Notes: a model not told the origin generated them from the sequence alone. A stretch of DNA of 64,000 bases from Candidatus Kapaibacterium sp. (GCA_963664875.1 OY761611.1:1998111-2062110); one strand, 5' to 3'. Counted from the first letter of the stretch, positions 3,151 to 41,383 are shown. Program-made: numbers and translations.

Positions 3151-3154
3151 TGAG

Positions 3155-4306
3155 TTATTTAATATTTAAATATCTTACTTTTGCAATTTTATTTTGGGCT
3201 TTTATGACGACTAAATACAATCCAGCACTTTTATCGTCAAAGCTTATTATCTGTCTATCTTGATATTTTGTACAGTTTCCATTCAAATCATATATCTCTA
3301 TAATGTTATCTTGGTCTTTTACGATTATGCTGTTGTCGGCAATTTCGTAAACTGACTGTACATCTACATCTGTGACACTTGTAGTTCTGTTTGCAAAGAC
3401 ACACGTATCTTTTTCAAGAGTTTTGGCACAGTTACAGTCGTTTAAGTCTGCAATCTCTACCTCAATAGACTCATCATAGTTTTCGTTTATCACTCTGTCT
3501 ATTTCAAAATCTAAAAAGTACTCTTGAGTGTTTTCTTTTATATTTAGAACAATATCGTAACTGCTATCTGACTCTATTACATTTGCTATTTCGATGTCGC
3601 TGTTTTTTGCAGCAAAGTTTGAAAATAAGAATTTATCTGATTTTTGAAGTTTCAAAAGAAAATTGCTTACTTTTGCCTCTTCCGGAATATCTAAAATCAT
3701 AGTAGAATTTAGTTTTCCTGTTTCATCAAATTCTTTTTCTTCAGCATCAAAGCTAACTTTTGCATATCTGTTTTCACCTGATTTAACTTCTGATTCAATA
3801 TAGAATGTTTTATTGGCAAAAGCAGGTATTTTACATTCGGATGTAAATGATAATTCTTCTACAACAAGGCTCGCAGAATCCGGACAATCTCCGATATAAG
3901 TAAACTGCAAAGCTATTAACGGCAAGTCTCCATAACTAGGAACATTTATATGTCCACTTAAGATGCCTGCATTTAACAATATATGATTATCATCTATCAC
4001 TTTTATACTAACTTTATCAAACCTCTCAGAAAGAGTATTTAAAGTGGCATAAGTATTACCAAAGTATAGTTTGGTATTATCATATTCCATGTATAAAGTA
4101 ATACCGAACAGTGAGTCAGATGGCTCTATAGTGCCTAAATCTAAATGTATAAGAACGTCTCTTTTGCTGTTTTGAAATACTATTCCGCAAGCATCAGCTT
4201 TTGACTTAGGAATTATTTCTAAGTTATAATCTTTTGCATTGCTCGGGATACTGCTCCAAAAGAGCAGTATTCCGATGCAAAATATATAATAGCTGAGTTT
4301 ACGCAT
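3155..4306 (-). CDS. Secreted 383-aa protein with a T9SS C-terminal sorting domain; function unknown
   Basis: Signal peptide (YYIFCIGILLFWSSIPSNA). C-terminus IIEIYDLNGN...AGLYLVVIKAQNKIAKVRYLNIK is CTD-like. There is a 4-nt gap to the downstream gene and a 1-nt gap to the upstream gene. Confidence 0.6.
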   Translation of the reverse strand: MRKLSYYIFCIGILLFWSSIPSNAKDYNLEIIPKSKADACGIVFQNSKRDVLIHLDLGTIEPSDSLFGITLYMEYDNTKLYFGNTYATLNTLSERFDKVSIKVIDDNHILLNAGILSGHINVPSYGDLPLIALQFTYIGDCPDSASLVVEELSFTSECKIPAFANKTFYIESEVKSGENRYAKVSFDAEEKEFDETGKLNSTMILDIPEEAKVSNFLLKLQKSDKFLFSNFAAKNSDIEIANVIESDSSYDIVLNIKENTQEYFLDFEIDRVINENYDESIEVEIADLNDCNCAKTLEKDTCVFANRTTSVTDVDVQSVYEIADNSIIVKDQDNIIEIYDLNGNCTKYQDRQIISFDDKSAGLYLVVIKAQNKIAKVRYLNIK

Positions 4307-4307
4307 A

Positions 4308-6209: not shown

Positions 6210-6286
6210 TTTATTTATTAATCTCTTTTTCTATTTTTTAAGTAGGCAGGTCTTCAGTCTAAAGAAGACCTGCTATATTCTAAGTG

Positions 6287-9200: not shown

Positions 9201-12200
9201 GTTTGCAATTTAACAACATCACCTGTAAACACTGGAGGATTTGTAGATTCAGAGATACCGAATTTCAAACCATCTTCCATAGCTTTTACAACACCTTCTC
9301 TCCACAATACTGTACGAGAAACGATTCTGATTGTATCGCCAACGTTTACCGGAAGTGCTTTATATCTTTCACCAGCGAAGTACGCTTGGTTACCATCGTT
9401 AGAAGCAGGCATATCAGGTCTGTTGCTATAGATTTTAGCAAAGTCACCTAAGTTATAGTTATTGATTGCTTCTAATACAGAGTATTTACGACCTTGAAGA
9501 GCAGCGCCATCTTCATTATAAGGATTGCGAGCTAATTTTTCAAGTAAAGGCTGACCAGAACCTAAGTTCATCAAACCTTCTTCGTTACGACGGAACAAGA
9601 ATTTGTTATTTCTGTTTGTAGAGTCAGGAACCAATTCAACTCTTGCACGGAATACTTCTTTGTTAGCACCGGCTTCAGCAACCTGTTTCATGTTAACGCG
9701 GATGTAGTCAGTAGTAGTTTCATTGATTACAAAGAATACTGTTTCGTTTACAACGTTTGTGTCGTGGTTAGATCTTTCAATCATACCATCGTAATCAACC
9801 ATAGATTCTAAGAACATTGGGTATCCGATTGGATGAGAATCTTCTTTGAAGTCTGTGATTAATTTAGAAACGATTGCATCATCTTCCATATAAGGATCGC
9901 GAGTCATACGACGAACATATTTACCGTCGAATACTTCACCTGCAGCAGCATATCTATCTACAACAGGAGCGATACCAACTGCGAAGTCTTCAATTGGAGA
10001 CATTCTGCGGTTAGAATAGTCAGCAGTTTTGATGTCAGTACCTTTGTCATATACGTCATAAACGCGACCTGACATAAGTAATGTTTCTTTGATTGAATTA
10101 GTACCAGGTAAAGTAACGTCATTAACGTCATTTACTAATGGTATTGGAGTATAGTTATATTTGTTGTAAGATTCAAATGGACCTTGTTCTCTTGGATCAG
10201 CCAAAGTAGTTGGATCAGCAGCATACATAGTTTTCATATGAGTTTCGCCGTCACCTTCGATGTAGAATGTTTCGAAACGTGCGTTAGCGATACCGCCACC
10301 AGCATTTGGCAATTCAAAGATAATGTTTGCTTGAGTTTCACCCCAGTAGTTACCGCGCAATGTGTCAGTACCACCGGAACCGATACCTGTAATACCAGCC
10401 AATAAGCCTTTAGTATTAGGAGCATCCGGTAATCTTACAAAGAAGCGAGCGCTGTTATCATAAACAGAGTTAGCTGCTTCAGAGTAAATGTAAGAAGGTA
10501 GTGGACCTTGAACTTCACCATAAATAGTAGTAGAAGCCAAATCGCTTGAAGCTAAGTTTTTAGGGTTAGAGTTAGGATTGAAAGGACCATCGATTGTGTT
10601 TTGTTCCCAACCGTATTGGTTTCTTGCATCTACATCATTACCTGCAATAAGAGATCTATTGAAGATAAGTTTCAAATCGTAGTTGTCAGAGTAAACAGCT
10701 GAACCAGTAAATGATTTGTTACCAACCATTCTTACGCGGTTAAAGTTTACAGAGTCAATTCTACCAATTCTGTTTTGAGTTACTGAGTCAAGGATGTACA
10801 ATGCACCGCCAAGACCAACGCCATTTTCAGGAAGCATCACTTCTTGGTGATAACGAGTAACATCAGTGAAGCCTTCGTCAGCTGGTTTAACAGAAGTCCA
10901 TTCAGTAGCGCCGTTTGTAAGTACAAGACCGGCATCACCTACTACAAAACCTTTGTTAGGAGCTGAGAAGAAGATATCAGCAAAAGAATATTTAGCATAT
11001 TTGTTTTCAACTTTTTCTTCAGTCCAAGTCAAACCACCGTCAACTGATTTGAAGAAAGTACCAAACTGACCAACCATATAGCCTGTAGTCTGAGCAACAA
11101 AGTAAACTTTATTGATAGTGTGAGTAGCAGGGCTATTAGGATTGATTACCCAGTTATCGCCTTTGTTAGCAGTAGTCATCATGATACCGCCTTCACCTAC
11201 AGCGTAACCGTCGTTAGGATTTTTGAAGAATACAGATTTCAAGTTTTGAGTAACGCCGGCAACTGTTCTTAAGATCCAGTCTTGGCCACCGTTAGTAGTT
11301 TTCAACATAGTACCACGATCACCAACAATGAAACCATTGTTAAGACCATCGTTGAAATCTACAGCATTCAAATGAGCAGTAACAGGTTGAGTTGAAGTCC
11401 AAGTCTGACCTGCATCAGTTGTTTTCAAGATATAACCATTATCGCAAGCAGCAACAGCTACGTTAGTACCAATAAATTTAACATCATTGATTTTAGCTGA
11501 AACAGGAGTAGTCATTTTTACCCAAGTTTTACCTGCGTTTGTAGTTTTCAATACAGTACCGCGGTCACCAACTACATAACCTGTTTGGTAGTCAGTAAAG
11601 TGAACGTCAGTAAGTCTGTAGTTAGTACCTGAAGTCAAGTATTCCCAGTTTGCACCACCGTTAGTAAATTTAACGATAAGACCACCCATACCAACGCCAT
11701 AACCAATGTTGTTATCCAACCAGTTAGTAGCGATAATATTGTTAGTAGTTACTTGAGTACCTTGATTAACTTGAGTAGCACCTGAGCCAGTTTGAGAAGC
11801 AAGAATATTATCATCAACGATAATTTCGTTGTTGTAGAATCTTGTCAACATTCTAACATCAGGAGGGAAGTTTTCAGAGTCATAAGTAAATACATCATTG
11901 TATGAGTTGTAAGAAACAGGCATACCGTACATGTCATACTGAACATCATCAACGTCAGTGATAAAGAAACGTTTAGAAGAAGTTTCAGGATTAACCATAC
12001 AGATTGCACCACCGTTACCGTTATAAACAGTATTGTGAGCAAACTCAACACCTTTAACTAAAGTAAGGTCAGCGTTAAGAGCATAAATAGCACCGCCACC
12101 TCTGATTTCAGGTTTGTTAGCATCAACAGTAATGTCTTTACCAACAGTGTTGCCTAAGAAAGAAGCTCTTACAAATGAGCAAGCTCTTTCGTGAGCAGGA

Positions 12201-14287
12201 AGAACAGGATATGCATTAGGTATTCTCAAATCGATAGCACCACCAGCATAACCGGCTTTGTTATTTTCAAAGATTACAGGGTAATTACCGCCATAACCGA
12301 TAATTTCTTTAGAAGCTACACCACCGGCGCCATTTACAGACATTGCTCTTTTAGAGAATACTGCACCACCGAAAGTTTGAGCTACGTTATCTTTAAATTT
12401 GATATTGAAACCATAATCTCTTGTAAGCAATGAAGCATCAGAACCACCGATTACAGGTGATTTCATGTGGTCAACATTACCATCAACAAAAATCGCACCG
12501 CCAGCACCAGCTTCGTTACCTTGGAATAAAGTAGCGTTATTGATTGCATCGCGAGCAGGACCACCAACTACTTGCAAACGACCGATTGTATTTGCATGGA
12601 ACACAGCACCACCCATAGAGAAGTAACCGCTGTTAGAACCTGCAACATCGTCTTGCAAGAATTTAGTGTAAGTTTTGTTGAATTTGAATTCACCGGCTAA
12701 GATCATAGAAGTGTAATCACCAACGTACAAAGCACCACCACGTGCACCGTAAGTAGAGCCTGAGCTTTGGAAGTTACGAGCTTCGTTACCTTCAGCAACA
12801 AATTCGTCAGCATCAGCAAAAGTAATCAAATTACCATGAGCATCTTTTATAGTATTGTTTATACCAAAACCAACTTCAATCTGGCGAGGATTAGCACCGT
12901 AGAAACCGGCAACATAAATCGCACCACCGAAAGCGTGGTTACCATATTTTTGTGGGTAATTAGCAGGGTTGTCAGTATCGTCAACAACTACGTCAACGCC
13001 ACCGATTTTTTTAACAACAACATTAGCTAATTGAGCTTTGTTACCTGAGAAAGTAAGATTACGCATACGACCTAAGTAAAGAGCAACGCGAGCGTCGTCC
13101 CATGCTTGACGATCGAAATCTGTAGCAAATGGTTCCTGAACATCACTATCTATATTATCAATAGCAGGAACAGGATTATTTCTGATGATTTCAGAAATTT
13201 CGCCTTGAGCATTTACAATCTGAGGGTTTTTGTCAGAAGCATAAGTAGGCAATGAAGTAACATTTTTAGGGTAACCTTCTGGAGCTTGCAAAATCTGCAA
13301 TGCACCACCGCGGTTACGAGACATGTTATTTACAAATTCGCAATTCAACAACCAAGTTCTTGAAGACAAAGTAGTGATAACACCACCGCCACCATTAGTT
13401 AGAGTGCGAATTTTTTCATTCATTTCAGCAGTTTTAGCGCCGAATTCATTACCATTATAAATAGGGTCTCTATCTACAGTAGTGTCTTTTTTGAAACCTT
13501 CGAAACGTACGTTTCTAAAGAATGCAGCTCTTGCACCTGGAAGAACCACGATGTGACCCCATTCTCTTGAAGCGTTATTTACAGGTTGACCGATGAAGTT
13601 GATTTGTTCAGCTTCAACAGCAACATCTGCACCACTAACTCTTTTCCAAGGTTGAGTGTTTAGAAGGATGTCGATTTTAGGATCAAACTGCAAACGAGCG
13701 TTTTTGAACATTAACGCTTGTTCGAAAGGAACGATGAATTTGTGAGGACCAACCACGTCATTTGCTCTGTGGTTTGCATCAATCATCTGGAAGTCTTCGA
13801 TTTTTCTGTTTAGAGTATCGACAACAACATTGAAAACAGTGTTGTATTTAGATGTATGAACAGACAAATCGCGAGTAGTATTTACATCAACTGTTTTAGT
13901 GTCAGATGTATATCCTAAACCACGAGTGAAATAAGCCATATCAGCATAGCCGGTATAGCCGGAACCGGGAGCGATAGGGTTAACACCATCCGGTGCTTTA
14001 ATGTAATTAGCAACAGCTTCGCCATCGGCGATGATTCTACCACCAACTGAGTCAATTAGTCTTGAGTTAGGGTAGAAGTAAACTGTTGTACCCGGCTCGA
14101 TAATCAAAGACCCGCCAACTACGTAATTCTTATCGATTACGTAAACGGTATCTTTTTGGAACAACCTTACATCCCCGGGTGCTATTCGACCGGAAACGTA
14201 AGCTTGCGGTTTTTGAGCCATAGCCTGTCCAAACGAGAGGACACAGAGTAATACAGCTAAAAAGCTCAAACGAATCAATCGTTGCAT
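6287..14287 (-). CDS. Giant 2666-aa secreted multi-domain protein with a T9SS C-terminal sorting domain
   Basis: Signal peptide (LSFLAVLLCVLSFGQAMA). About 15 GGA[ILV]-type repeats (GGALQIL, GGAIYV, GGALYV, GGAVFH, GGAIFV, GGAIDL, GGAIYAL, GGAICMV) match the polymorphic-membrane-protein / parallel beta-helix motif. A block of ~7 Ycf48/BNR-like propeller repeats follows (GTVLKTTNAGKTW, GYILKTTDAGQTW, GTMLKTTNGGQDW, FKSVDGGLTW). C-terminus PNPVTTSANIEF...ELIDVLGNVV...GTYTIRMKAGNVSSSMPVVLVK is a CTD. Confidence 0.75.
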   Translation of the reverse strand: MQRLIRLSFLAVLLCVLSFGQAMAQKPQAYVSGRIAPGDVRLFQKDTVYVIDKNYVVGGSLIIEPGTTVYFYPNSRLIDSVGGRIIADGEAVANYIKAPDGVNPIAPGSGYTGYADMAYFTRGLGYTSDTKTVDVNTTRDLSVHTSKYNTVFNVVVDTLNRKIEDFQMIDANHRANDVVGPHKFIVPFEQALMFKNARLQFDPKIDILLNTQPWKRVSGADVAVEAEQINFIGQPVNNASREWGHIVVLPGARAAFFRNVRFEGFKKDTTVDRDPIYNGNEFGAKTAEMNEKIRTLTNGGGGVITTLSSRTWLLNCEFVNNMSRNRGGALQILQAPEGYPKNVTSLPTYASDKNPQIVNAQGEISEIIRNNPVPAIDNIDSDVQEPFATDFDRQAWDDARVALYLGRMRNLTFSGNKAQLANVVVKKIGGVDVVVDDTDNPANYPQKYGNHAFGGAIYVAGFYGANPRQIEVGFGINNTIKDAHGNLITFADADEFVAEGNEARNFQSSGSTYGARGGALYVGDYTSMILAGEFKFNKTYTKFLQDDVAGSNSGYFSMGGAVFHANTIGRLQVVGGPARDAINNATLFQGNEAGAGGAIFVDGNVDHMKSPVIGGSDASLLTRDYGFNIKFKDNVAQTFGGAVFSKRAMSVNGAGGVASKEIIGYGGNYPVIFENNKAGYAGGAIDLRIPNAYPVLPAHERACSFVRASFLGNTVGKDITVDANKPEIRGGGAIYALNADLTLVKGVEFAHNTVYNGNGGAICMVNPETSSKRFFITDVDDVQYDMYGMPVSYNSYNDVFTYDSENFPPDVRMLTRFYNNEIIVDDNILASQTGSGATQVNQGTQVTTNNIIATNWLDNNIGYGVGMGGLIVKFTNGGANWEYLTSGTNYRLTDVHFTDYQTGYVVGDRGTVLKTTNAGKTWVKMTTPVSAKINDVKFIGTNVAVAACDNGYILKTTDAGQTWTSTQPVTAHLNAVDFNDGLNNGFIVGDRGTMLKTTNGGQDWILRTVAGVTQNLKSVFFKNPNDGYAVGEGGIMMTTANKGDNWVINPNSPATHTINKVYFVAQTTGYMVGQFGTFFKSVDGGLTWTEEKVENKYAKYSFADIFFSAPNKGFVVGDAGLVLTNGATEWTSVKPADEGFTDVTRYHQEVMLPENGVGLGGALYILDSVTQNRIGRIDSVNFNRVRMVGNKSFTGSAVYSDNYDLKLIFNRSLIAGNDVDARNQYGWEQNTIDGPFNPNSNPKNLASSDLASTTIYGEVQGPLPSYIYSEAANSVYDNSARFFVRLPDAPNTKGLLAGITGIGSGGTDTLRGNYWGETQANIIFELPNAGGGIANARFETFYIEGDGETHMKTMYAADPTTLADPREQGPFESYNKYNYTPIPLVNDVNDVTLPGTNSIKETLLMSGRVYDVYDKGTDIKTADYSNRRMSPIEDFAVGIAPVVDRYAAAGEVFDGKYVRRMTRDPYMEDDAIVSKLITDFKEDSHPIGYPMFLESMVDYDGMIERSNHDTNVVNETVFFVINETTTDYIRVNMKQVAEAGANKEVFRARVELVPDSTNRNNKFLFRRNEEGLMNLGSGQPLLEKLARNPYNEDGAALQGRKYSVLEAINNYNLGDFAKIYSNRPDMPASNDGNQAYFAGERYKALPVNVGDTIRIVSRTVLWREGVVKAMEDGLKFGISESTNPPVFTGDVVKLQTEVPEYLAGSDIPNRPDTIQVEEFLNTKFVLEDHLYELGNNNNNVIVKITAKDLNKFIDPRSEIAGDQYSELFYDWNVDPNTAVSRWLMFDKVYRTTTDIANINVPSVADSANGYMIFRGRPLNPFVVPGGEDVTVTVSNFPPHYRVLDSLLAHDPNFDLNEIDKYIETYPEYFHAEKYDTDNARFLQQDTINFGTNYKRSYTFKLIVVDSVPQFADFVDMRDQAAVDAAKEVVEIRTDAQGTTKTWVEYTPSLSACDITDDGQLKANLTDKLRFQIDVNTNDENEDQWALAHDVAAGRTPWTFPYGKTAYGFQHVAYDNDGNVIDLDTLAVDFDSDGYDPSGISMINRIAPKWLAPEYMMTFDDATIPDVNGLLFTSKGQLNIRIDRAEAIELLTAKADSKSVNGALNLDTIVNIVVNDGHGAMALQQYKVLINIAPEIITEALDNAKEDEDYNIDLLDSNRMIHVKDANFDQTHEFELVYDINAADIPKDPCFPEAGAWNVKDELTAAGFNVADLTYATPAWLKINPKSGLLFGTPGVLDAPKTDPVFVVVRDEEGLPTIKVLQLQVDSLNHAPNYVAQQEVICADLGGNFRDEITISDRDLLRNIDGHEEELTIDIYYAQADWTKGQKITSKFTFSPSSLVGPINEEQDIEITASNLDLDRDPIDKSSARLLIVITDKYGEELVIPYIIRLADPTDFVADLTITNSIGAAKVLSFGTAPANATTGYGDDGKEVGIIDETHCEFELAPIPPLDAFDARWDIPATNGVARNIYPSNVDGLFRYNGQFQPGGENGATGPLVPVTIAWNTDQIPTDGQFFIKDRLTTDGNYYSFNMKDGEGNHVSTVQFEKNGSECTITINDLALTEFVIVYDPAMSIDDNEMFVTSLNSVSPNPVTTSANIEFTLTRSESVSFELIDVLGNVVEVINSGNYQAGTHTIDWKVANSGIVSGTYTIRMKAGNVSSSMPVVLVK

Positions 14288-23298: not shown

Positions 23299-25089
23299 AT
23301 GAGAAATATAAATGCAATTTTTTTATTCCTTGTCCTAATGCTAAGTATAATTGGGAAAAGCAAGGCAAATAATGATACGTTTTTTGACGATTATATGAAA
23401 CGTAATGGTGAGCTTTATCCTTGGGAAAGAGATGCTACATTTTTGAACAAAGATAGTTTATGGATAGAATTTTACTTAACAAAAGCTGAGGCATTTATCA
23501 CTAACGACAATGATTCAGCACTACATTTTTTAAAGATTGCAGAAAAGAAAATACAAAATAAAAACTACACTCGACTTATTCCTGAACTATATTCCAAATA
23601 TGGCAATTATTACTTCTTTATAGATAAACAGGACACAGCGATTTATTATTTCAAGGCAGCAGCTAAAATGGCAGAAAAAGAAAAAGATACACTAACTGCC
23701 GGAATATCTTTCAGTAATTTAGCTCTAATTTACTCTTACCAATCGCAATATGACAAATTTCTTACATCAGCTCAAAATGCTATCATCTATAACAATTTGC
23801 TCAATAGGCATATTGCAAATATGAAAATATGGACAGCTCTTTCCGATTACTATTCTCATGAAAAAGATACTTTAAAAGCAGAGCATGCTTCTTATATGGC
23901 TCTAAGAGCTGCAGATTTGAGCAAGAATTTTGTATGGCAGCCCTGGGCGAAGAATCAGTATGCCTTATTGCTATTAGATTTTGGGAAAATAGAAAAAGCA
24001 GATAGTCTTATCTCGGAGCTCTTGCCTATAGCTGACACCATTTACTACAAGAAATTATCGAAAAATATTTATAAAACAAAAGCAGTCATACTAAATCTAC
24101 AAAAAGATGGCAACCGTGCTATACAATTTCTCAATAAAGCAAAAGATGCAGCACCATTTTCATCAACTTTTGATTCTCTCGATTATGAGATGTCTTTTGC
24201 TGATGCGTACGCAATTATGAATAAGCATCAATTTGCTATAGATATTTATAGAGGAATATTGAGCGTAAAATCAGATGTTTTAGATTTGGAACTGAAATTA
24301 AAGACTTATGACAAGCTAATCGCCTCGCTACAAGCAACTAACCAATATAAGGAGCTTTCTTATGTATGGGCACGTCGAACAGAAATCGCTAATGAGTTGC
24401 TAAATTCACGAAATATAGAATTGACTAAAAAATACGAAGTTGAACTCAATCTTCAGGATAAAGAACTTCAAACGAAAAAAGCAGAGTTGCAAGCACAGGA
24501 AGCAGAAGAAAAGACGACTTATTTGGCTTTTAGCTCTGTAATCCTTGCCTTTATCGTACTGTCTATAATATTAAGGATGCGTATTGCAAAAAAACAATCT
24601 GCACTGCAATTTCGAAATAATGAGTTGCAAAAAACAATCGAACTCAACGAGCAAAAAAACCTTTTAAAACAAAAGGAAAATGAGCTTTTTGAGCAAACAA
24701 AAGCTCTTGCAGAAAAACAGGAAATTGTAAATCGTCTCGAAGAAGAAATTACAAAAAGCAAATCTCTTAATATGCCAACTTACAGCATTGAGCAAATTTT
24801 AAGTGAAATACAGCAAAATAATATGACTATAGAATCTTTTGATTTGAAATTCAACGAGATCTATCCCGATTTTTATACTCGTTTATATCAAACATGCTCT
24901 GACCTTTCTCAGTCAGAAATAAGGGTTTGTGCTTTGATAAAGATGAATATGAACACTAAAGAAATAGCAAATCTGCTAAATGTATCACCCTCAACTATCG
25001 ACAACCACAGATTCCGAGTCCGCAAAAAATTAGAATTGGAAAAAGGCACTAACTTATTTGATGCAATTCAAAATTTAGACAACTCGTAA
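23299..25089 (+). CDS. Membrane-anchored TPR-repeat transcriptional regulator with a C-terminal LuxR/GerE-type HTH
   Basis: Signal/anchor sequence, TPR-like repeats (YYFKAAAKMAEKEKD..), an internal transmembrane helix (YLAFSSVILAFIVLSIIL), a coiled coil, and a C-terminal LuxR HTH (SQSEIRVCALIKMNMNTKEIANLLNVSPSTIDNHRFRVRKKL). Confidence 0.65.
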   Translation: MRNINAIFLFLVLMLSIIGKSKANNDTFFDDYMKRNGELYPWERDATFLNKDSLWIEFYLTKAEAFITNDNDSALHFLKIAEKKIQNKNYTRLIPELYSKYGNYYFFIDKQDTAIYYFKAAAKMAEKEKDTLTAGISFSNLALIYSYQSQYDKFLTSAQNAIIYNNLLNRHIANMKIWTALSDYYSHEKDTLKAEHASYMALRAADLSKNFVWQPWAKNQYALLLLDFGKIEKADSLISELLPIADTIYYKKLSKNIYKTKAVILNLQKDGNRAIQFLNKAKDAAPFSSTFDSLDYEMSFADAYAIMNKHQFAIDIYRGILSVKSDVLDLELKLKTYDKLIASLQATNQYKELSYVWARRTEIANELLNSRNIELTKKYEVELNLQDKELQTKKAELQAQEAEEKTTYLAFSSVILAFIVLSIILRMRIAKKQSALQFRNNELQKTIELNEQKNLLKQKENELFEQTKALAEKQEIVNRLEEEITKSKSLNMPTYSIEQILSEIQQNNMTIESFDLKFNEIYPDFYTRLYQTCSDLSQSEIRVCALIKMNMNTKEIANLLNVSPSTIDNHRFRVRKKLELEKGTNLFDAIQNLDNS

Positions 25090-25112
25090 ATATCTTTAAA
25101 TAAGACACTTAG

Positions 25113-25138
25113 CCTCATAGGTGAAATATGTGAGATAA
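25113..25138 (+). promoter_or_regulatory. Conserved upstream motif, copy 1 (CCTCATAGGTGAAATATGTGAGATAA), ~60 nt before the IPTL-CTERM paralog A start
   Basis: Near-identical 26-bp element found at the same offset upstream of all three paralogs (25113, 26945, 29029). Confidence 0.45.
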
Positions 25139-25198
25139 TAAAGTACTTCATAAATACTACTTTACAACTATCAATAACATCAACTATGAGGTAGTAAT

Positions 25199-26842
25199 AT
25201 GATTTTTAAAACTCCTTTTTTTATAGCGGCTATGGTTTTTCTAATGATAGCTTCTACGATTACAAGAGCTGTATCTTGGTACCCAAATCGAAATATAAAT
25301 TCATCAAACTGGGCTTATGCGAACAGCCAAGAAGCAGATTTTGATGGAGATGGAGATGTTGATATTTTGGTTAATGGAAGGAAGGGATCGACCGGCACAC
25401 CTTTTTCAACTGTTCTATACGTGAATGATGGAACCGGAAACTTTACAGAAACTTCAATCCCATCTTTTTCTATATACCAATTTAAAGAGATCCACATTTT
25501 AGATATTGATTCAGATGGTGATATCGATCTTCTGCTCCCATTTTACAATACTACGCTTTCTCGTATTCAGTTTGGCTTGTTCTTAAACAACGGAAATGGT
25601 CTATCATATACTCAAACACAAGCTATCGACTATATTAATAGGATTGAAGTCGGTGATATTGATGGAGATGGCGATATTGATATTGTAGGTATCAATAGCG
25701 ATACAAAACAAATTGTCAAATTGGTAAATAATGGTGCAAATGCCTTTAGTTCTACTGATATTGAACTTTTAGGTGATGATGTGAATCCGGTAACAAATCC
25801 CGCCCTAATATCAGCTACTTACTACGACATAGAGCTTTTTGATATTAACAATGACGGTGATCTTGACATAGTCTCTGCATATACAAATGCAGTTGGGCTT
25901 CCATCTCAAGCTGGTGTATTACAAGTGTTTGAGAATAATGGCTCAGGTTCATTTACTGAACTATCTAAGATCATAGACACAGAAGCCGCATCGGCTAATT
26001 TCAAACCAGGGACAGGAATAATGATAGTACCTGCTCATATCAATGGAGATAATTTTAAGGATTTCTTGATATCCGCCCAAGGTGCTCTTTATAGTTTTAC
26101 CAATAATCAAGCTTCAGGTTTTACATCCTCAGGTAGTTCTATTGCCTCGAGTGAGTCTAATAGTTACAATCCTAATTCATACAGAATCGCTGATTTAGAC
26201 GATGATGGAGATGATGACATAATAATTTGGGGTGCAGGTACTACCGGCACTGTTATCTTAGGAAGAAACGGAGGCAATTTTAGTTATTCATTTGCAACAT
26301 TCAACAGCGGTAATAAAATTAATGGGCAACCTACAAGTACTTTCCAGGTATGGGCAAGTGGCTCAATTAATGTTGCTGATTTTGACGGAGATGGCGAAAT
26401 AGATATGCATGTGTTTAGTTTATATGATAACAGTGGACCGGGGCTTTATGGTTCAGCATGTCCAACAAACGTTTCCATCTCCGCAGTATCCAAAATATCA
26501 GATACTGAATACGAGATAAGTGCCACTCCCGATGACGGTGCTTGTTCTACGATTTTAGCGAAGGGTATAGTATGGGGAACATCAACAAATCCAACTCTCG
26601 CATCAAATTCGGGTTCAGTTGCTGCAGGTTCCGGTTCAGCATCATATAGTGCGAACGCTATAAATGTTACAGTAGGTCCGGGCTATTACGTGAGAGCTTA
26701 TGTTACTACTTCTATTGGGACATATTATTCTGAGCAGGTTCACTTTGGTGTAGTTCCTACATTGCCTGAATGGGGTCTGATAATCCTCGCAGGCGGATTT
26801 TTAGTAACAGGCGGATGGTTTATGTTTAGAAAGTTTATGTAG
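25199..26842 (+). CDS. Secreted FG-GAP/VCBS-repeat protein with an IPTL-CTERM-type C-terminal sorting tail (paralog A)
   Basis: Signal peptide. Repeated Ca-binding FG-GAP-like loops (DFDGDGDVDIL, DIDSDGDIDLL, DIDGDGDIDIV, DINNDGDLDIV, DLDDDGDDDII, DFDGDGEIDMHV). C-terminus VPTLPEWGLIILAGGFLVTGGWFMFRKFM matches the [IV]PTL[SP]EWG motif followed by a transmembrane helix and a basic cluster. Confidence 0.8.
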   Translation: MIFKTPFFIAAMVFLMIASTITRAVSWYPNRNINSSNWAYANSQEADFDGDGDVDILVNGRKGSTGTPFSTVLYVNDGTGNFTETSIPSFSIYQFKEIHILDIDSDGDIDLLLPFYNTTLSRIQFGLFLNNGNGLSYTQTQAIDYINRIEVGDIDGDGDIDIVGINSDTKQIVKLVNNGANAFSSTDIELLGDDVNPVTNPALISATYYDIELFDINNDGDLDIVSAYTNAVGLPSQAGVLQVFENNGSGSFTELSKIIDTEAASANFKPGTGIMIVPAHINGDNFKDFLISAQGALYSFTNNQASGFTSSGSSIASSESNSYNPNSYRIADLDDDGDDDIIIWGAGTTGTVILGRNGGNFSYSFATFNSGNKINGQPTSTFQVWASGSINVADFDGDGEIDMHVFSLYDNSGPGLYGSACPTNVSISAVSKISDTEYEISATPDDGACSTILAKGIVWGTSTNPTLASNSGSVAAGSGSASYSANAINVTVGPGYYVRAYVTTSIGTYYSEQVHFGVVPTLPEWGLIILAGGFLVTGGWFMFRKFM

Positions 26843-26873
26843 ATTTTAAAAGTTTGAGAATTATTGATTATTG

Positions 26874-26910
26874 AGATACCGCAGGCATTTTTGCTTGCGG
26901 TATTTTTTTT
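26874..26910 (+). terminator. Rho-independent terminator after paralog A
   Basis: ataccgcaggca-tttt-tgcttgcggtat hairpin followed by T8. The same sequence is duplicated after paralog B. Confidence 0.55.
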
Positions 26911-26944
26911 ATTGCTTCTAAATAGTTGTAATATAACTATTTAC

Positions 26945-26970
26945 CCTCATAGGTGAAATATGTGAGATAA
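26945..26970 (+). promoter_or_regulatory. Conserved upstream motif, copy 2, ~62 nt before the paralog B start
   Basis: CCTCATAGGTGAAATATGTGAGATAA, identical to copy 1. Confidence 0.45.
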
Positions 26971-27032
26971 GATTTTTCTGGTATATCGTTAGATTTAGCA
27001 TGGGTTAATCTATACATATACAAGGTTGAGTT

Positions 27033-28928
27033 ATGAAAAAGTATATCATGTTGACTTTAATCATCTTATTCATCAACAGTTCTTTGTTGTTTTCTCAAGG
27101 ATTTTCAGTTACTCCAGTATTCTTTGCCTGGGATTCTATTCACGATGAAGCTCCTATAAGCATTGTGTCGGGAGATGATGGAAACGCCGATTTAGCTCCT
27201 CCATTTACATTTCAATATTTTGGAGAAAATGTTACAAATATTAATGTAACAACAAATGGCTATATCACTTTAACGACAGCCTCGGGAACAAGGGACCTAA
27301 ATATTTGTCGTGCAGATTTAGAAGCTTTCGATTTTGCTGTAAGATATGTAGTTAGAGGTGTTAGCCCAAATAGAGTTTTAGTGATAGAGCACACAGATTT
27401 AGACTATTTTAATAATATCAGCACTACAATGGATTTACAATGGATTTTTTACGAAAACAGTACAATCTTTACATTTGTATATAACCAAGTTGATTTTGTC
27501 AACAATAGTAATCTATCTATACAAAACGGAGTAGGTTCCACCTATTATCTAACTCCTACTTCGGGATGGGGACAACCGACTATTACAGATTTCAATATTT
27601 TTGGACTAAATTCAACAACTGAATCTTATTTTTATGATGGTTGTGCATATACTTTTACACCAAGCTTAACCGTATCTGCAACAACGGTAGCTTCTGCAAT
27701 AACCACCAATAGTGCTTCTTCAGGCGGCAATATATCTAATGGTGGGCTAACCCCTGTAACTGCTCGTGGTGTATGTTGGAACACTAGCGGAACTCCAACT
27801 ACCGCTGACAGTAAAACTTTAGATGGCACTGGTACGGGGGTCTTTACAAGTATTCTATCTGGTCTTTCTTCAAATACCCAATATTTTGTCAGAGCTTATG
27901 GTACAAATACGGAAAGTACTGAGTATGGCCCTCAAATATCTTTTTATTCTTTAGCTAATGTTCCTACTGCCCCCACTGTAGATAATGCAACTTCTACAAC
28001 AGTAGATGTTGATGTAAATACTAATTCCAATCCTGCTATAACCACTTATGCTATCCAAGAGACATCCACAGGCAATTATCTGCAATCAAATGGAACTCTC
28101 TCAGGCGTGGCAGTATGGCAAACAGATGCAATATGGGCTACCAAAACTGTTACCGGACTTTCGCAAGGGACTACATACACATTCCAGGTTAAAGCAAGAA
28201 ACGGTAATAATACAGAAACTGTATTTGGAGCTACGAGTTCTATTATGACTTTGGGCGAGCCAATTCTTGACGCCACAACGGCAGCAAGTTCTATCTCAGA
28301 AGGCTCAGCAGTAAGTGGCGGTAATATAAGCAATGACTACGGATTAGGAGTAACTTCCCGAGGCGTCTGCTGGAATACAGGAGGTAATCCTACCACTGCT
28401 GATTCTAAAACTACAGATGGTACCGGAACAGGTGTTTTTATAAGTAATATTACAGGACTACAACCTAACACTACTTACTATGTTAGGGCTTATGCTACAA
28501 GTTCAGGCGGAACCGGGTACGGTGCGCAAATAAGCTTTACTACATTAGCCCTTTCTGTATCAATTACTAATGTGCTTAAAGTTAGTGATACACAATATAC
28601 TTTTACGAGCGACCTAACTAATCCAAATACGATAACAATTTTAGACAAAGGAATCGTTTGGAGTACCTCTCAAAATCCGACAACTACCTCAAATAGCGGT
28701 TCGGTATCTTCGGGAGCAGGGAGTGTACAGTTTACTGACGACGCGACCGGTTTATTGGTCGGACCTGGTTACTATGTTCGTGCTTACATCACAACAGCAA
28801 ACGGAACATTCTATTCTGAGCAGGTTCACTTTGGTGTAGTTCCTACATTGCCTGAATGGGGTTTGATAATCCTTGCCGGCGGATTTTTGGTAACAGGTGG
28901 ATGGTTTATGTTTAGAAAGTTTATGTAG
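27033..28928 (+). CDS. Secreted repeat protein (FN3/Ig-like tandem domains) with an IPTL-CTERM-type sorting tail (paralog B)
   Basis: Signal peptide. Three ~90-aa internal repeats (GVCWNT.G.PTTADSKT.DGTGTGVF...NT.Y.VRAY.T...G..YG.QISF). The C-terminal ~125 aa are near-identical to paralog C, ending VPTLPEWGLIILAGGFLVTGGWFMFRKFM. Confidence 0.8.
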   Translation: MKKYIMLTLIILFINSSLLFSQGFSVTPVFFAWDSIHDEAPISIVSGDDGNADLAPPFTFQYFGENVTNINVTTNGYITLTTASGTRDLNICRADLEAFDFAVRYVVRGVSPNRVLVIEHTDLDYFNNISTTMDLQWIFYENSTIFTFVYNQVDFVNNSNLSIQNGVGSTYYLTPTSGWGQPTITDFNIFGLNSTTESYFYDGCAYTFTPSLTVSATTVASAITTNSASSGGNISNGGLTPVTARGVCWNTSGTPTTADSKTLDGTGTGVFTSILSGLSSNTQYFVRAYGTNTESTEYGPQISFYSLANVPTAPTVDNATSTTVDVDVNTNSNPAITTYAIQETSTGNYLQSNGTLSGVAVWQTDAIWATKTVTGLSQGTTYTFQVKARNGNNTETVFGATSSIMTLGEPILDATTAASSISEGSAVSGGNISNDYGLGVTSRGVCWNTGGNPTTADSKTTDGTGTGVFISNITGLQPNTTYYVRAYATSSGGTGYGAQISFTTLALSVSITNVLKVSDTQYTFTSDLTNPNTITILDKGIVWSTSQNPTTTSNSGSVSSGAGSVQFTDDATGLLVGPGYYVRAYITTANGTFYSEQVHFGVVPTLPEWGLIILAGGFLVTGGWFMFRKFM

Positions 28929-28960
28929 ATTTTAAAAGTTTGAGAATTATTGATTATTGA

Positions 28961-28996
28961 GATACCGCCGGCATTTTTGCTTGCGGTATTTTTTGT
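28961..28996 (+). terminator. Rho-independent terminator after paralog B
   Basis: Hairpin ataccgccggca/tgcttgcggtat followed by a T-tract. It is a duplicate of the terminator after paralog A, and the ~90 nt after the stop codon are also duplicated. Confidence 0.5.
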
Positions 28997-29028
28997 TGCT
29001 TCTAAATAGTTGTAATATAATAGCTTAC

Positions 29029-29054
29029 CAATATAGGTGAAATATGTGAGATAA
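29029..29054 (+). promoter_or_regulatory. Conserved upstream motif, copy 3, ~67 nt before the paralog C start
   Basis: CAATATAGGTGAAATATGTGAGATAA; the core TAGGTGAAATATGTGAGATAA is identical to copies 1 and 2. Confidence 0.45.
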
Positions 29055-29121
29055 GATTTTCCCAAAAAATTCGTTGATTAAGAAAGTGTTCAACTAAACA
29101 GCACAATTAAGGTGTATCAAA

Positions 29122-31116
29122 ATGAAACTTTATTTTCTACTTTTTACTCTATTTTTTCTAAGTTTGACTTCGACTCTTCAGTCACAATCTTGGGATCAAC
29201 TAATCAAAATTTGTGCCTCAGACAGAGCTGCAAATGCAAGTTTTGGGACTTCGGTTTCAATCGACGGAGATTATGCTATCGTGGGTGTTCAAGGAGAGGA
29301 TAGTGGAGGAAATGATGCAGGAGCTGCATACATTTTTAAGAAAAATGCAGGCACATGGACACAAATAAAAAAAATTGTAGCCTCTGATCCAACTGCTGCA
29401 GACAATTTTGGTCGTTCAGTATCTATTTCCGGTGATTATGCAATAGTGGGAGCTCCCTCCAATCAGTTTGATCCAGGAGGCAACAATCCACTTAGTAATG
29501 CAGGTAGTGCATATATATTTTATAAAGATCAAGGCGGAGTAGATAATTGGGGACAAATTCAAAAAATTGTGGCACTTGACAGAGCACAAGGCGACAGTTT
29601 TGGTTCATCTGTGTCAATTTCAGGAAATTATTTAATTGTGGGTGCATACGCAGAAAGTCATGACGAAGCAGGTAGTAATTTCTTACATGCTGCCGGCAGT
29701 GCATATATTTTCTATAAAACCGGTGTAACCACCTGGGACTCGGGCATTAAAATTGTTGCTTCGGATAGAGTAGCCGATGCGTATTTTGGGAATTCAGTAT
29801 CAATATACGGAGATTATGCCATTGTAGGAGCACCTTATGAAGACAAAGACGCAGCCGGCTTAAACAGCGTAAGTCGAGCTGGTGGGGCTTACATTTTTTA
29901 CAGAACCGGTACCAATTCGTGGACATCTCGATATAAAATTGTTGCAACGGACAGAGAGAGTGATGATAATTTTGGTATATCTGTTTCTATTTCCGGAAAT
30001 TATGCTATTGTTGGTGCTCCCGGGGAAGATCCAAGTGCAATCCAAAATGCAGGTAGTGCATACATATTTTATAGAACAGCTACTAATACATGGGATTCCG
30101 GCACCAAGATTGTAGCACCTGATGCAGGAGGCAGCGATTTGTTTGGCCAAGCAGTAGCAATTTCGGGAAATTTTGCTGCTATCGGAGTCAGTTATGAAGA
30201 CGAAAATCTTTTAGGTGGAAATACTTTAAACAATGCCGGAAGCGCATATATTTTCAAAAGGACAGGGACAACAACCTGGGATTCCGGTACAAAAGCAATT
30301 ACTACCGACAGAGCTTCCAATGATTGGTTTGGATACTCAGTGTCGATTTCCGGAAGCAATGTTATTTTAACTGCCCCTTATGATTCTGAAGATGCTTTAG
30401 GTGCCAATACTTTGTCAAGTTCAGGAAGTGCCTACATTTTTGGAGGATCTCCTTTAGTCTCTACTGTTTCAATAAGTAACATTACAAGCTCAACTGCAAG
30501 TTCTGGTGGAAATGTATCCGACGAAGGTTCTGCTGCTGTAATTGCTCGTGGCGTCTGCTTGAATACAGGAGGCAATCCTACTACCGCCGATAGTAAAACT
30601 ACAGATGGAATCGGTACAGGAGTGTTTTCCAGCAACATTACAGGACTTCAGCCCAACACTACTTACTATGTTAGAGCTTATGCCACAAATAGTGTAGGGA
30701 CATCTTACGGCGATCAAATAAGCTTTACTACTTTAGCTCTTTCAGTTTCAATTACTAATGTACTTAAAGTTAGTGATACACAATATACTTTTACGAGTGA
30801 TATAAATAATCCCGGTGCAGTAGCAGTCCTCGACAAAGGTATCGTTTGGAGTACCTCTCAAAATCCGACAACTACCTCAAATAGCGGTTCGCTATCTTCG
30901 GGAGCAGGGAGTGTGCAGTTTACTGAAGACGCAACAGGGTTAATCATCGGGCCTGGTTACTATGTTCGTGCTTACATCACCACTCCAAACGGAACATTCT
31001 ATTCTGAGCAGGTTCACTTTGGTGTAGTTCCTACATTGCCTGAATGGGGGCTTATAATCCTTGCCGGCGGATTTTTAGTTACAGGAGGCTGGTTAATGTT
31101 TAGAAAGTTTATGTAG
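29122..31116 (+). CDS. Secreted FG-GAP beta-propeller protein with an FN3/Ig-like domain and an IPTL-CTERM-type sorting tail (paralog C)
   Basis: Signal peptide. Eight ~55-aa repeats of the form ASD.A.D.FG.SVSISGDYAIVGAP..D...AGSAYIF (FG-GAP propeller blades), then the same repeat unit as paralog B. C-terminus VPTLPEWGLIILAGGFLVTGGWLMFRKFM. Confidence 0.8.
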   Translation: MKLYFLLFTLFFLSLTSTLQSQSWDQLIKICASDRAANASFGTSVSIDGDYAIVGVQGEDSGGNDAGAAYIFKKNAGTWTQIKKIVASDPTAADNFGRSVSISGDYAIVGAPSNQFDPGGNNPLSNAGSAYIFYKDQGGVDNWGQIQKIVALDRAQGDSFGSSVSISGNYLIVGAYAESHDEAGSNFLHAAGSAYIFYKTGVTTWDSGIKIVASDRVADAYFGNSVSIYGDYAIVGAPYEDKDAAGLNSVSRAGGAYIFYRTGTNSWTSRYKIVATDRESDDNFGISVSISGNYAIVGAPGEDPSAIQNAGSAYIFYRTATNTWDSGTKIVAPDAGGSDLFGQAVAISGNFAAIGVSYEDENLLGGNTLNNAGSAYIFKRTGTTTWDSGTKAITTDRASNDWFGYSVSISGSNVILTAPYDSEDALGANTLSSSGSAYIFGGSPLVSTVSISNITSSTASSGGNVSDEGSAAVIARGVCLNTGGNPTTADSKTTDGIGTGVFSSNITGLQPNTTYYVRAYATNSVGTSYGDQISFTTLALSVSITNVLKVSDTQYTFTSDINNPGAVAVLDKGIVWSTSQNPTTTSNSGSLSSGAGSVQFTEDATGLIIGPGYYVRAYITTPNGTFYSEQVHFGVVPTLPEWGLIILAGGFLVTGGWLMFRKFM

Positions 31117-31145
31117 TTAGAGCCAATTGCATTCACTAAATAATA

Positions 31146-31190
31146 CAAATCCGCAATATACTTTTTATTAGTAACATTGCGGATTTTTTA
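31146..31190. terminator. Convergent terminator between paralog C (+) and the flotillin gene (-)
   Basis: aatccgcaat...attgcggatt inverted repeat with a T-run. Confidence 0.45.
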
Positions 31191-31216
31191 TATAGAAAAG
31201 AAATCGCTTACTCTTC

Positions 31217-32785: not shown

Positions 32786-32796
32786 TGATAAATCTC

Positions 32797-40004: not shown

Positions 40005-40517
40005 TTAGTTTGGTCGTACAGTGAATACTATGAAGAGAATCATTATGATCAATATGGCTGAAGTCATTATGCTATTTACTTTTGCATTAATTGCCATAGT
40101 GTTTCTAAGTGTTTCGCCTCTTCTTTTACCGAGTCTGTAATAGAAATAGTAATCATAAACAACAGAAAAGAAAAAGTAGAAGAAGGTAGTAAACACCCAA
40201 ATTATAATTTTGTCTAACACACTATCTTCTATAAACTCACTCCTAACCAATAGAAAGCTACTTAATACTCCGGCAGAGACAAAACTTAGTATGAAGGAAA
40301 ATGATTTGTACAAAGTAAATGACCAATACTCCTTATTTGATAAATCTTTCCAAAATATAGCAATAACTACCGAATTTATCATTGATAGAAAAATACCAAC
40401 GAAAAACAATATTAGTAACCAGAAAGTGAAGAAAGCAGGACCAAAAGAGTGAGCCCACATCACCTGGGGTAGAAGCAGTGCAAAGATTACAAGTAATATC
40501 TTAGATTTTAAGTTCAA
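40005..40517 (-). CDS. Hypothetical integral membrane protein with a TTG start
   Basis: 170 aa with 4-5 transmembrane helices. It is flanked by 24-bp direct repeats. Confidence 0.4.
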   Translation of the reverse strand: MNLKSKILLVIFALLLPQVMWAHSFGPAFFTFWLLILFFVGIFLSMINSVVIAIFWKDLSNKEYWSFTLYKSFSFILSFVSAGVLSSFLLVRSEFIEDSVLDKIIIWVFTTFFYFFFSVVYDYYFYYRLGKRRGETLRNTMAINAKVNSIMTSAILIIMILFIVFTVRPN

Positions 40518-40523
40518 TTCGGG

Positions 40524-40814
40524 TTAGTCCTTTAGTGCTTTTTTATTTCCGTACTTCTGATCTAAGTGCATAAAGAAATATCCTACTGCATTGCCGAGGG
40601 CAAATTTTAGAAGTAGAAAGAGCATATCTATGCCAAGGTAGGGTTTTACTTCATCTGTACCCAAGATTGCCCACATAAAAATCAGGTAGGCAGTTGCTAT
40701 CAGAGTTGTCTCTAAAATAAAAAACACCGCCTTTGGGAGCGGTGTCTTATCAGATTTTCTAAGAATCACGCCGTAGCTCCCTTCCGTATAAAAATGCCGT
40801 CGAATGTTTCCCAA
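40524..40814 (-). CDS. Hypothetical small membrane protein, possibly a frameshifted continuation of the upstream ORF
   Basis: 96 aa. It overlaps ORF 40766..41383 by 49 nt in a different frame. Confidence 0.3.
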   Translation of the reverse strand: MGNIRRHFYTEGSYGVILRKSDKTPLPKAVFFILETTLIATAYLIFMWAILGTDEVKPYLGIDMLFLLLKFALGNAVGYFFMHLDQKYGNKKALKD

Positions 40815-41383
40815 ATTTTTTCAAATACACCATACATAAACACCCAGCCAATCAGCGAGCATATTGTGTATCCGAAATATCCTTTAAAATATACAATTTT
40901 AGGGATTAGTCCCACAGGTGAAAACTGCAAAAGATAAATGTTCCAATCCGTGCCTAAGCTGATAAGGACAAACAGCAAAAATGCTGAGTAAAAACTGTAC
41001 TTATCGAACTTGGTAAGATTGAGGTTTTCCGCTTCTTCTCTGTATTCAAAGTTGGTAACTGCCCAATTTGAGATGCGCCTCATGCGGTAATAAAGTGCAT
41101 AAAGACAAAAAGACATAAACGCAACTGTTCCGGAGGTTGATGACACACCCGCAGAATTGCCCATTATCACACCTGAAGAAACATAGCCGGCACCAATGGC
41201 AAGCACAAAATACTGCATATTTCGCAGTATAAATCTGAGCTTTGCCTGATTCATGGCATTTTTCAACATGAACCACGCCGGAATATATACCGTCAGATAG
41301 TAGAAGGCAAGCAGAAAAAGAAATGTAAAGCCCAAAAAGCCTACATAATAGAAAACACTTTTAATGAGTAACAAAATGTCCAT
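40766..41383 (-). CDS. Hypothetical integral membrane protein
   Basis: 205 aa with multiple transmembrane helices. Confidence 0.4.
   Translation of the reverse strand: MDILLLIKSVFYYVGFLGFTFLFLLAFYYLTVYIPAWFMLKNAMNQAKLRFILRNMQYFVLAIGAGYVSSGVIMGNSAGVSSTSGTVAFMSFCLYALYYRMRRISNWAVTNFEYREEAENLNLTKFDKYSFYSAFLLFVLISLGTDWNIYLLQFSPVGLIPKIVYFKGYFGYTICSLIGWVFMYGVFEKIWETFDGIFIRKGATA

Follow-up and report, generated by a model that had tools for sequence, protein, structure and literature searches.

Predicted surface-protein genes with IPTL-CTERM-type tails adjoin a candidate sensor-regulator in a Kapabacteria-like genome

Introduction

Among the C-terminal sorting signals of bacteria, IPTL-CTERM (NCBIfam TIGR04174, Pfam PF18203) is a curated family that is experimentally almost untouched. 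It consists of a short tripartite C-terminal domain, occurs on signal-peptide proteins with varied passengers, with several genes per genome, and is mainly beta- and gamma-proteobacterial. The only IPTL-CTERM protein known to have been located experimentally is the S-layer protein of Methylomirabilis (PMC8671808). Here we describe a locus in a 64-kb stretch of DNA from Candidatus Kapaibacterium sp. (GCA_963664875.1 OY761611.1:1998111-2062110; the whole stretch is referred to as the window) in which three consecutive genes on the + strand, A (25199..26842), B (27033..28928) and C (29122..31116), share the features listed above and end in tails of this class, and in which the gene of a membrane-anchored regulator (23299..25089, +) lies directly upstream.

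Among the systems with which the tails can be compared are the exosortase/PEP-CTERM systems (XrtA; XrtH, XrtM, XrtF). The likeness lies in expected export by Sec, retention by a C-terminal helix and a polytopic enzyme with Cys, Arg and His motifs; the difference is that the present tails carry no PEP motif and that neither an exosortase nor an exopolysaccharide (EPS) locus is found near the array or in the sequence examined. For the regulator, the nearest described group is that of the SusR-like proteins, which are Bacteroidetes-specific and membrane-anchored, use direct-repeat operators and are usually linked to susC/D loci (PMC3878776). The present regulator resembles them in having a predicted periplasmic sensor, a single transmembrane (TM) helix and a cytoplasmic C-terminal helix-turn-helix (HTH), in lying next to cargo genes that we presume to be its targets, and in the direct-repeat character of its candidate operator, in which GTGA is repeated 11 bp apart. 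It differs in that the targets would be tail-bearing surface proteins and not a susC/susD polysaccharide-utilisation locus, in that the candidate operator is a compact 19-nt element as opposed to two boxes 67-77 bp apart, and in that its HTH scores as GerE/LuxR while the NCBIfam SusR and BT3442 models fall far under their cutoffs. No SusC/D pair lies near the array, and the only TonB-dependent receptor in the window is encoded 20 kb away, at 51311..53311.

Results and discussion

All three proteins end in ...VHFGVVPTLPEWGLIILAGGFLVTGGW[F/L]MFRKFM, a tail laid out as VPTLPEWG-LIILAGGFLVTGGWFMF-RK-FM, in which an [IV]PTLxxWG motif leads directly into a hydrophobic helix, apparent as a hydrophobic stretch in the hydropathy scan of each protein, and then into a basic cluster at the very end. 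In gene A the tail is encoded by 34 codons at 26738..26839 (VHFGVVPTLPEWG, then the TM helix and RKFM), and the corresponding segments of B and C lie at 28824..28925 and 31012..31113, all on the + strand. When scored against TIGR04174, A (20.9 bits), B (20.5 bits, exactly at the cutoff) and C (22.5 bits) all reached the curated cutoff of 20.5 bits. No PEP-CTERM model of NCBIfam matched A, B or C at E <= 1, the motif being PTLPEWG and not PEP, and there was no match to Por_Secre_tail (PF18962 / TIGR04183), the C-terminal domain (CTD) recognised by the T9SS (type IX secretion system). The only other model to match the tails was Microco_LAVTG, at 13.5-14.2 bits against a cutoff of 27, and the tails do not qualify as LPXTG-type signals. 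VPTLPEWG abuts the helix without a spacer, which is a trait of substrates of membrane-embedded sorting enzymes (Haft, bioRxiv 10.1101/2023.06.07.544157). Taken together, a borderline pass of one hidden Markov model (HMM) and the full tripartite architecture assign the tails of A, B and C, as judged by sequence, to the IPTL-CTERM class. The initial annotation had proposed this class, and both the model matches and the occurrence of the motif well beyond these three genes bear the proposal out. Relative to described family members, the present helix is Gly-rich (AGGF..TGGW), the basic cluster is just RK plus two residues, and the host is a Kapabacteria-like relative of the Bacteroidota.

The tail is carried by dissimilar passengers. 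Gene A encodes a 547-aa protein with a signal peptide, an FG-GAP_3 (VCBS-type) beta-propeller (six FG-GAP_3 matches in the Pfam scan) and one Ig/fn3-like domain, and gene C a 664-aa protein with a signal peptide, a seven-bladed FG-GAP_2 propeller (seven matches) and two fn3-like domains. The 631-aa product of gene B has a signal peptide, an N-terminal domain of ~210 aa without assignment, and fn3 and fn3-like repeats; the Pfam scan found no FG-GAP in it. The signal peptides were judged from hydropathy and sequence and not from a dedicated predictor: each protein has an N-terminal hydrophobic segment in the hydropathy scan and a sequence typical of SPase I signals. No mutual similarity is detectable among the three passengers except for the fn3-like repeats common to B and C, while the passenger of C is 44% identical over 535 aa to the Kapaibacterium cargo protein K2. 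The initial annotation had placed the four open reading frames (ORFs) exactly as we find them and had described A, B and C as three paralogs built of FG-GAP/VCBS blades and FN3/Ig repeats. This description fits the C-terminal Ig-like module and the tail, which are homologous, and the propellers of A and C; it does not fit the passenger domains, which are unrelated, or gene B, which lacks FG-GAP.

Tails of the same type recur in related genomes. A scan of GTDB species representatives returned one related locus, that of a Candidatus Kapaibacterium metagenome-assembled genome (MAG) of the Bacteroidota (L001), and a contig of a sister MAG (L013) holds two further tail-bearing genes. The tail behaves as a module and is attached to three passengers in the window, to three in L001 and to two in L013. 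Of nine Kapabacteria-type tails, eight (A, B, C and five of six related ones) score at or above the TIGR04174 cutoff; scores recorded among the related tails are 20.8, 17.8, 23.2, 22.9 and 23.7 bits. All nine have the Pro of PTL exactly 28 residues before the end of the protein. When metagenomes were scanned for VPTLPEWG, four more genuine tails came up, from high-GC organisms, which score 18.0-29.1 bits on TIGR04174 and are borne by ice-binding-like, subtilisin+DUF11 and cyclase-like passengers. The architecture of VPTLPEWG, TM helix and basic residues is identical in the Kapabacteria-type and the high-GC tails, on unrelated passengers. A 55-aa tail query and a seven-sequence tail alignment retrieved nothing from a word-indexed protein database in which the window proteins are themselves present, a result that reflects the limit of such searches for short queries and not rarity of the tail. 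With the 120-aa C-terminal module as query against representative proteins, only P0143, P0148 and P0150 matched into the tail among 15,184 proteins with the fn3-like repeat.

Sequence comparison indicates that the tail is under purifying selection, helix included, and is not merely a recent copy. Within the window, the 34-codon tails differ from one another at 5-8 nt, with 5-7 synonymous against 0-1 non-synonymous codon changes (5 and 0 between A and B); in the Ig-like domain adjoining the tail, 39 of 86 codons are non-synonymous between A and B. Between the window tails and those of the Kapaibacterium proteins K1 and K3 there are 16-21 nt differences, of which 10-17 codon changes are synonymous against 2-5 non-synonymous, and comparison with the more diverged K2 gives 11-13 synonymous and 10-11 non-synonymous differences. 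Across genomes, 12-17 of the 18 residues of the tail TM segment are identical, and the TM helix of the regulator, which serves as an internal control for a generic anchor in the same genomes, is 28-36% identical. Because nearly all nucleotide differences are synonymous, within the array and against most of the related tails, and the tail TM segment is far more conserved than the regulator's helix, the constraint on the tail appears to be sequence-specific.

At the nucleotide level, only the junction cassette that comprises the 3' tail-coding sequence, the terminator and the operator region (26672..27016, with a second copy at 28758..29100, + strand; repeat families D1, D6 and D8) looks recently homogenised, being 89-100% identical between the A-B and B-C junctions. 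The last 102-120 nt of A, B and C are 90-95% identical, B and C are ~63-95% identical over their last ~600 nt, and the first 40 nt past the stop codons of A and B are 100% identical; tail nucleotide identity is 92-95% within the genome versus 71-84% between genomes. The earlier suggestion of a recently amplified adhesin family is thus apt for this cassette and not for the genes as wholes, in which the passengers are unrelated and the tail is kept by purifying selection rather than by recency.

We examined the neighbourhoods of the high-GC tails for candidate sorting enzymes and found an exosortase-family gene beside VPTLPEWG cargo in all three metagenome contigs with usable flanks (L003, L004 and L006). 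In L004 an exosortase of 182 aa comes first, then a membrane partner of 186 aa and then the cargo (enzyme unit at L004:2414-3507); in L006, homologues of exosortase and partner (L006:1643-2883) precede one tail-bearing ORF, and a second cargo gene, with a C-terminal tail, is found at a distance of 9 kb; in L003, the exosortase forms a fusion with its partner (L003:6587-8110) that is divergent from the cargo. Such gene neighbourhoods provide direct, context-based evidence for a pairing of VPTLPEWG tails with short exosortases plus a membrane partner. All three exosortases pass the TIGR04178 signature model and contain the motifs with Cys, Arg and His. The subfamilies closest to them are XrtM (53-81 bits against a cutoff of 125) and XrtH (47-69 against 86), the exosortases of L004 and L006 also have sub-threshold scores of 38.4 and 27.5 bits on the XrtF model, and because all three fall under every NCBIfam subfamily cutoff they may form an unmodelled subfamily. 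NCBIfam also includes an "exosortase H" model, TIGR04177, whose original TIGRFAMs name, "IPTLxxWG-CTERM-specific", points to a putative pairing of XrtH with IPTL. The statement in the initial annotation that no cognate sorting enzyme is established for this family therefore needs qualifying: adjacency in three of three contigs and the exosortase H model give the family a clear candidate enzyme class, the exosortases, though none was found in the ~80 kb of the present genome that was read.

The enzyme unit itself has a conserved form, in which a short exosortase (~165-185 aa) is followed by a multi-TM partner (~190 aa) that matches no family; the fused ORF of L003 is 508 aa long and its second half is weakly ArtE-like. 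This layout parallels that of XrtF and its "system-associated protein". Beside the exosortase and partner of L006 lies a 1582-aa ORF (L006:3041-7789) in which VPTLPEWGMIILGALLLGIGYRKQ is internal, at about residue 1117, and is followed by a second hydrophobic stretch and then by YD/RHS-type repeats. This may be an IPTL-type signal inside a possible polymorphic toxin, an odd placement, the alternative being a missed stop codon or a gene fusion. Two small membrane proteins encoded on the - strand of the window, at 40005..40517 (170 aa, five predicted TM helices) and 40766..41383 (205 aa, about three hydrophobic segments), were considered as sorting enzymes and rejected, since neither has a family match at E <= 1 or the exosortase layout of Cys, Arg and His, and the former contains no Cys.

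The gene upstream of the array encodes a 596-aa protein of the one-component membrane regulator type, in which Pfam identifies TPR_12 and, towards the C-terminus, a GerE/LuxR HTH. Hydropathy scanning shows hydrophobic segments at residues 1-19 and 407-425, and the sequence RMRIAKK after the second of these puts the TPR domain on the periplasmic side and the HTH on the cytoplasmic side; the predicted order is thus a signal or anchor (residues 1-19), a periplasmic TPR domain, a TM helix (407-425), a cytoplasmic coiled-coil linker and the LuxR/GerE HTH (536-584). Over the region from the TM helix to the HTH, the regulator has a weak partial match to NF053779 (BT3442_fam; 24 bits against 940), and its L001 homologue R2 one to NF058541 (SusR_regulator; 25.8 bits against 480), suggesting that, among named proteins, it is closest to the SusR-like group of membrane-anchored Bacteroidetes regulators. 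The family is tiny, with four real homologues among 5.8 billion sequences. Those in L001 are 57% and 47% identical to the window protein and each lies directly 5' of tail-bearing cargo, a conservation that strengthens the link, drawn in the initial annotation from position, between the TPR-TM-LuxR regulator and the array. At the site in a near-identical MAG (L008) that corresponds to L001:10492-16518, the second regulator and two cargo genes are absent and cargo 1 is directly followed by HSP20 genes; the regulator-cargo unit is modular and behaves as an insertion/deletion module.

A 22-nt sequence, ATAGGTGAAATATGTGAGATAA, has exactly three copies in the window (25117, 26949 and 29033), one before each cargo gene, against a chance expectation of zero even with three mismatches, so that the shared upstream motif reported initially is exact at all three genes. 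Its 19-nt core, TAGGTGA-W4-TGTGAGAT, defines three candidate operators on the + strand, at 25118..25136 (TAGGTGAAATATGTGAGAT; 62 nt upstream of the start codon of A), 26950..26968 (64 nt upstream of that of B) and 29034..29052 (69 nt upstream of that of C). The core recurs without mismatch after both regulator paralogues of L001 and the regulator of L008, where the surrounding intergenic DNA has diverged, and is absent at the two cargo genes of L013, which have no adjacent regulator, and from the rest of the 257 kb scanned. Since it is present only where the regulator adjoins, the motif follows the regulator and not the tail, and is probably the operator of that regulator.

An intrinsic terminator on the + strand, a hairpin with a U-run, follows each cargo gene. 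The one after A lies at 26873..26906 (-22.9 kcal/mol, z = -7.5), that after B (28959..28992) is a copy of it with one stem mismatch (-18.9 kcal/mol, z = -5.1), and that after C (31150..31183) is unrelated in sequence to both (-12.5 kcal/mol, z = -4.9); no terminator lies between the regulator gene and A. The near-identical 3' end and terminator noted earlier for the whole array hence apply to the 3' ends of A, B and C, and, for the terminator, to A and B and not to C. A scan for the sigma-70 consensus around the array gave 34 promoter-like sites against 28.3 +/- 5.9 in shuffled sequence and is uninformative. In the spacer between regulator and A (25087-25198), CCUCAUAGG, which overlaps the operator at its left edge, can base-pair with CUAUGAGG over the Shine-Dalgarno sequence of gene A (minimum free energy -21.5 kcal/mol, z = -3.0), a pairing not found upstream of B or C. 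Because of this pairing, A might be translated poorly from transcripts that read through from the regulator gene.

With moderate confidence, we favour a reading of the locus as a self-contained module of regulator and cargo in which the tails are processed by an exosortase. Under this model, the SusR-like regulator would sense a periplasmic cue through its TPR domain, bind TAGGTGA-W4-TGTGAGAT some 60-70 nt upstream of each start codon and thereby activate three separately terminated cargo genes. A, B and C would be exported by Sec through their N-terminal signal peptides and retained in the inner membrane by the TM helix of the tail, where an intramembrane cysteine peptidase/transpeptidase of the exosortase family (XrtH/XrtM-like), presumably encoded elsewhere in the 3.83-Mb genome, would recognise VPTLPEWG and the helix. 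Removal of the helix would release or re-anchor the cargo for display on the cell envelope.

Several observations weigh against this model. The tails of A, B and C miss the Pfam IPTL-CTERM model PF18203 (~14 bits against a cutoff of 20.8), their pass of TIGR04174 is borderline, the K2 tail (17.8 bits) falls under the TIGR04174 cutoff, and the basic cluster comprises two residues only (RK). Searches of every ORF of at least 110 aa in the 64-kb window with Pfam and NCBIfam found no exosortase, rhombosortase, CPBP or sortase, and a local HMM built from the three metagenome exosortases, run on the window, its extensions of 8.8 kb to the right and 6.8 kb to the left, L001, L008 and L013 together with NCBIfam searches of unannotated multi-TM ORFs, found no exosortase in ~130 kb of non-redundant Kapabacteria-type sequence; this covers ~80 kb of the 3.83-Mb source contig and is absence of evidence only. 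Cleavage of an IPTL-CTERM tail has no experimental evidence in any organism. On the regulatory side, the SusR family assignment comes from weak partial matches, PF19904 (SusR_C) is present in the precomputed Pfam annotation and was not reproduced by hmmscan at E <= 0.1, and we infer binding of the motif by the regulator from co-occurrence in just two or three independent genomes.

Some of these points would equally be explained if the tail were a permanent C-terminal anchor in the inner membrane that left the propeller and Ig domains on its periplasmic side, and if it met no sorting enzyme in this organism. The hydrophobic stretch in each tail, the two-residue RK cluster and the lack of an exosortase-like gene in the ~130 kb all fit such an anchor. 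However, a generic anchor needs neither an invariant VPTLPEWG nor a near-invariant helix, and the anchor of the regulator has drifted to the low identity given above; moreover, the identical motif adjoins exosortase genes in three other lineages, the tail reaches the TIGR04174 cutoff, and FG-GAP propellers and fn3 stacks are typical of surface rather than periplasmic proteins. We regard a permanent anchor as unlikely. That the shared tails and motifs are simply left over from a tandem duplication or gene conversion of very recent date, and are themselves under no functional constraint, is suggested by the near-identity of the junction cassettes and by the closer resemblance of tails within than between genomes; this explanation is largely refuted and, in our view, very improbable, given that differences within the tails are nearly all synonymous, that tail and motif are retained in MAGs with regulators of 47-57% identity and passengers of no more than 44% identity over full length, and that unrelated phyla share the tail motif.

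It is also conceivable that the tail is a processed signal and that the enzyme is other than XrtH/XrtM-like, namely a Bacteroidota XrtF-type exosortase or a member of an undescribed class. Most Bacteroidota with XrtF have not been reported to have IPTL-CTERM proteins, which speaks against XrtF, as do the lack of an XrtF-like gene in the sequence examined and the identity of VPTLPEWG in Kapabacteria and in exosortase-linked high-GC tails, the last of which argues for one recognition system. In favour of such an enzyme are the layout in L004 and L006, where a short exosortase and a small membrane partner are arranged as for XrtF and give sub-threshold XrtF matches, and the lack of an XrtH-like gene near any Kapabacteria cargo. 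Surface colonisation by F. johnsoniae requires XrtF and the partner protein encoded next to it, for neither of which a substrate has been identified (PMC10936215). We judge processing by another enzyme to be distinctly unlikely, and the specific proposal that Kapabacteria-type IPTL-CTERM tails do without an XrtH/XrtM-type exosortase and are processed by XrtF or by an undescribed enzyme class to be a long shot. Were it true, the tails would be the first substrate class for XrtF, and the cell would have, beside T9SS and under a dedicated SusR-like sensor, a second C-terminal sorting route at the inner membrane.

Exosortase processing within a regulator-cargo module remains the reading we prefer, and none of these findings overturns the present picture. 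The tail family is already curated, and the NCBI annotation pipeline would name A, B and C by the same HMM. What is new is the host lineage, which is related to Kapabacteria within the Bacteroidota, is flagellated and bears T9SS, together with the evolutionary evidence for sequence-specific constraint on the whole tail, helix included. Also new is that the cargo is linked with a SusR-like sensor-regulator of its own and with a 19-nt candidate operator, a link that would widen the SusR-like repertoire beyond polysaccharide-utilisation loci.

Genomic context

The initial annotation had noted that another group of genes in the window, within 85..14287, uses the T9SS CTD, and two ORFs there indeed pass Por_Secre_tail (85..3150 at 40.5 bits and 6287..14287 at 31.2 bits), with sub-threshold matches in 4308..6209 and 3155..4306; a glutaminyl cyclase is encoded in the same window at 60686..61510. 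Two C-terminal sorting signals are thus found together within 64 kb, which is not in itself surprising. Both are borne by large secreted surface proteins rich in beta-propeller or Ig domains, as predicted, and both are C-terminal sorting elements. They differ in that the T9SS CTD folds as an Ig-like domain, ~70-100 aa long, whose recognition takes place at the outer membrane, whereas the present tail is a motif plus TM helix of 28-34 aa that would act at the inner membrane. A further ORF at 55965-57044 (+, 359 aa) matches Por_Secre_tail at 23.9 bits against 27, over residues 78-142 and so near its N-terminus.

The window also encodes motility functions. A flagellin gene (Flagellin_N and Flagellin_C; 22013-22960, -) lies directly upstream of the regulator, and CheB is encoded at 61813..62847. 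Flagella together with T9SS are unusual for Bacteroidota at large and fit Kapabacteria- or Ignavibacteria-like lineages. Directly downstream of the array, 31217-33438 (-) encodes a protein of the SPFH/Band-7 (flotillin-like) type, which has a long coiled-coil region rich in Ala, Glu and Lys, and an adjoining two-TM protein, which is NfeD-like by position; this pair is not kept beside the Kapaibacterium arrays.

The array itself is found again in a sister assembly (L012, a 1.03-Mb contig), which is 99.97% identical to the window over 11 kb. The sole differences within the array are C5->C7 and C3->C4 in gene B (window positions 27969 and 28356), a net change of +3 nt, and gene B is there split into called fragments of 316, 93 and 118 aa. 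These frameshifts could stem from homopolymer errors in long reads, or gene B could be truly disrupted in that population.

The fn3-like repeat common to B and C (28350-28925 and 30538-31113, with further repeats within both genes) is marked by the motifs G[VI]CW[SN]T..NPT and TTYYVRAY. The representative proteins that match it, numbered above, have more than 30 copies in some cases, and it is often paired with Fibrobacter-type "YGKLYNW" domains. Its Pfam matches are sub-cutoff only (fn3, Pur_ac_phosph_N) and its NCBIfam match is to the BT0360 arabinanase model, in the N-terminal part, so that the repeat may be without a dedicated domain model of its own.

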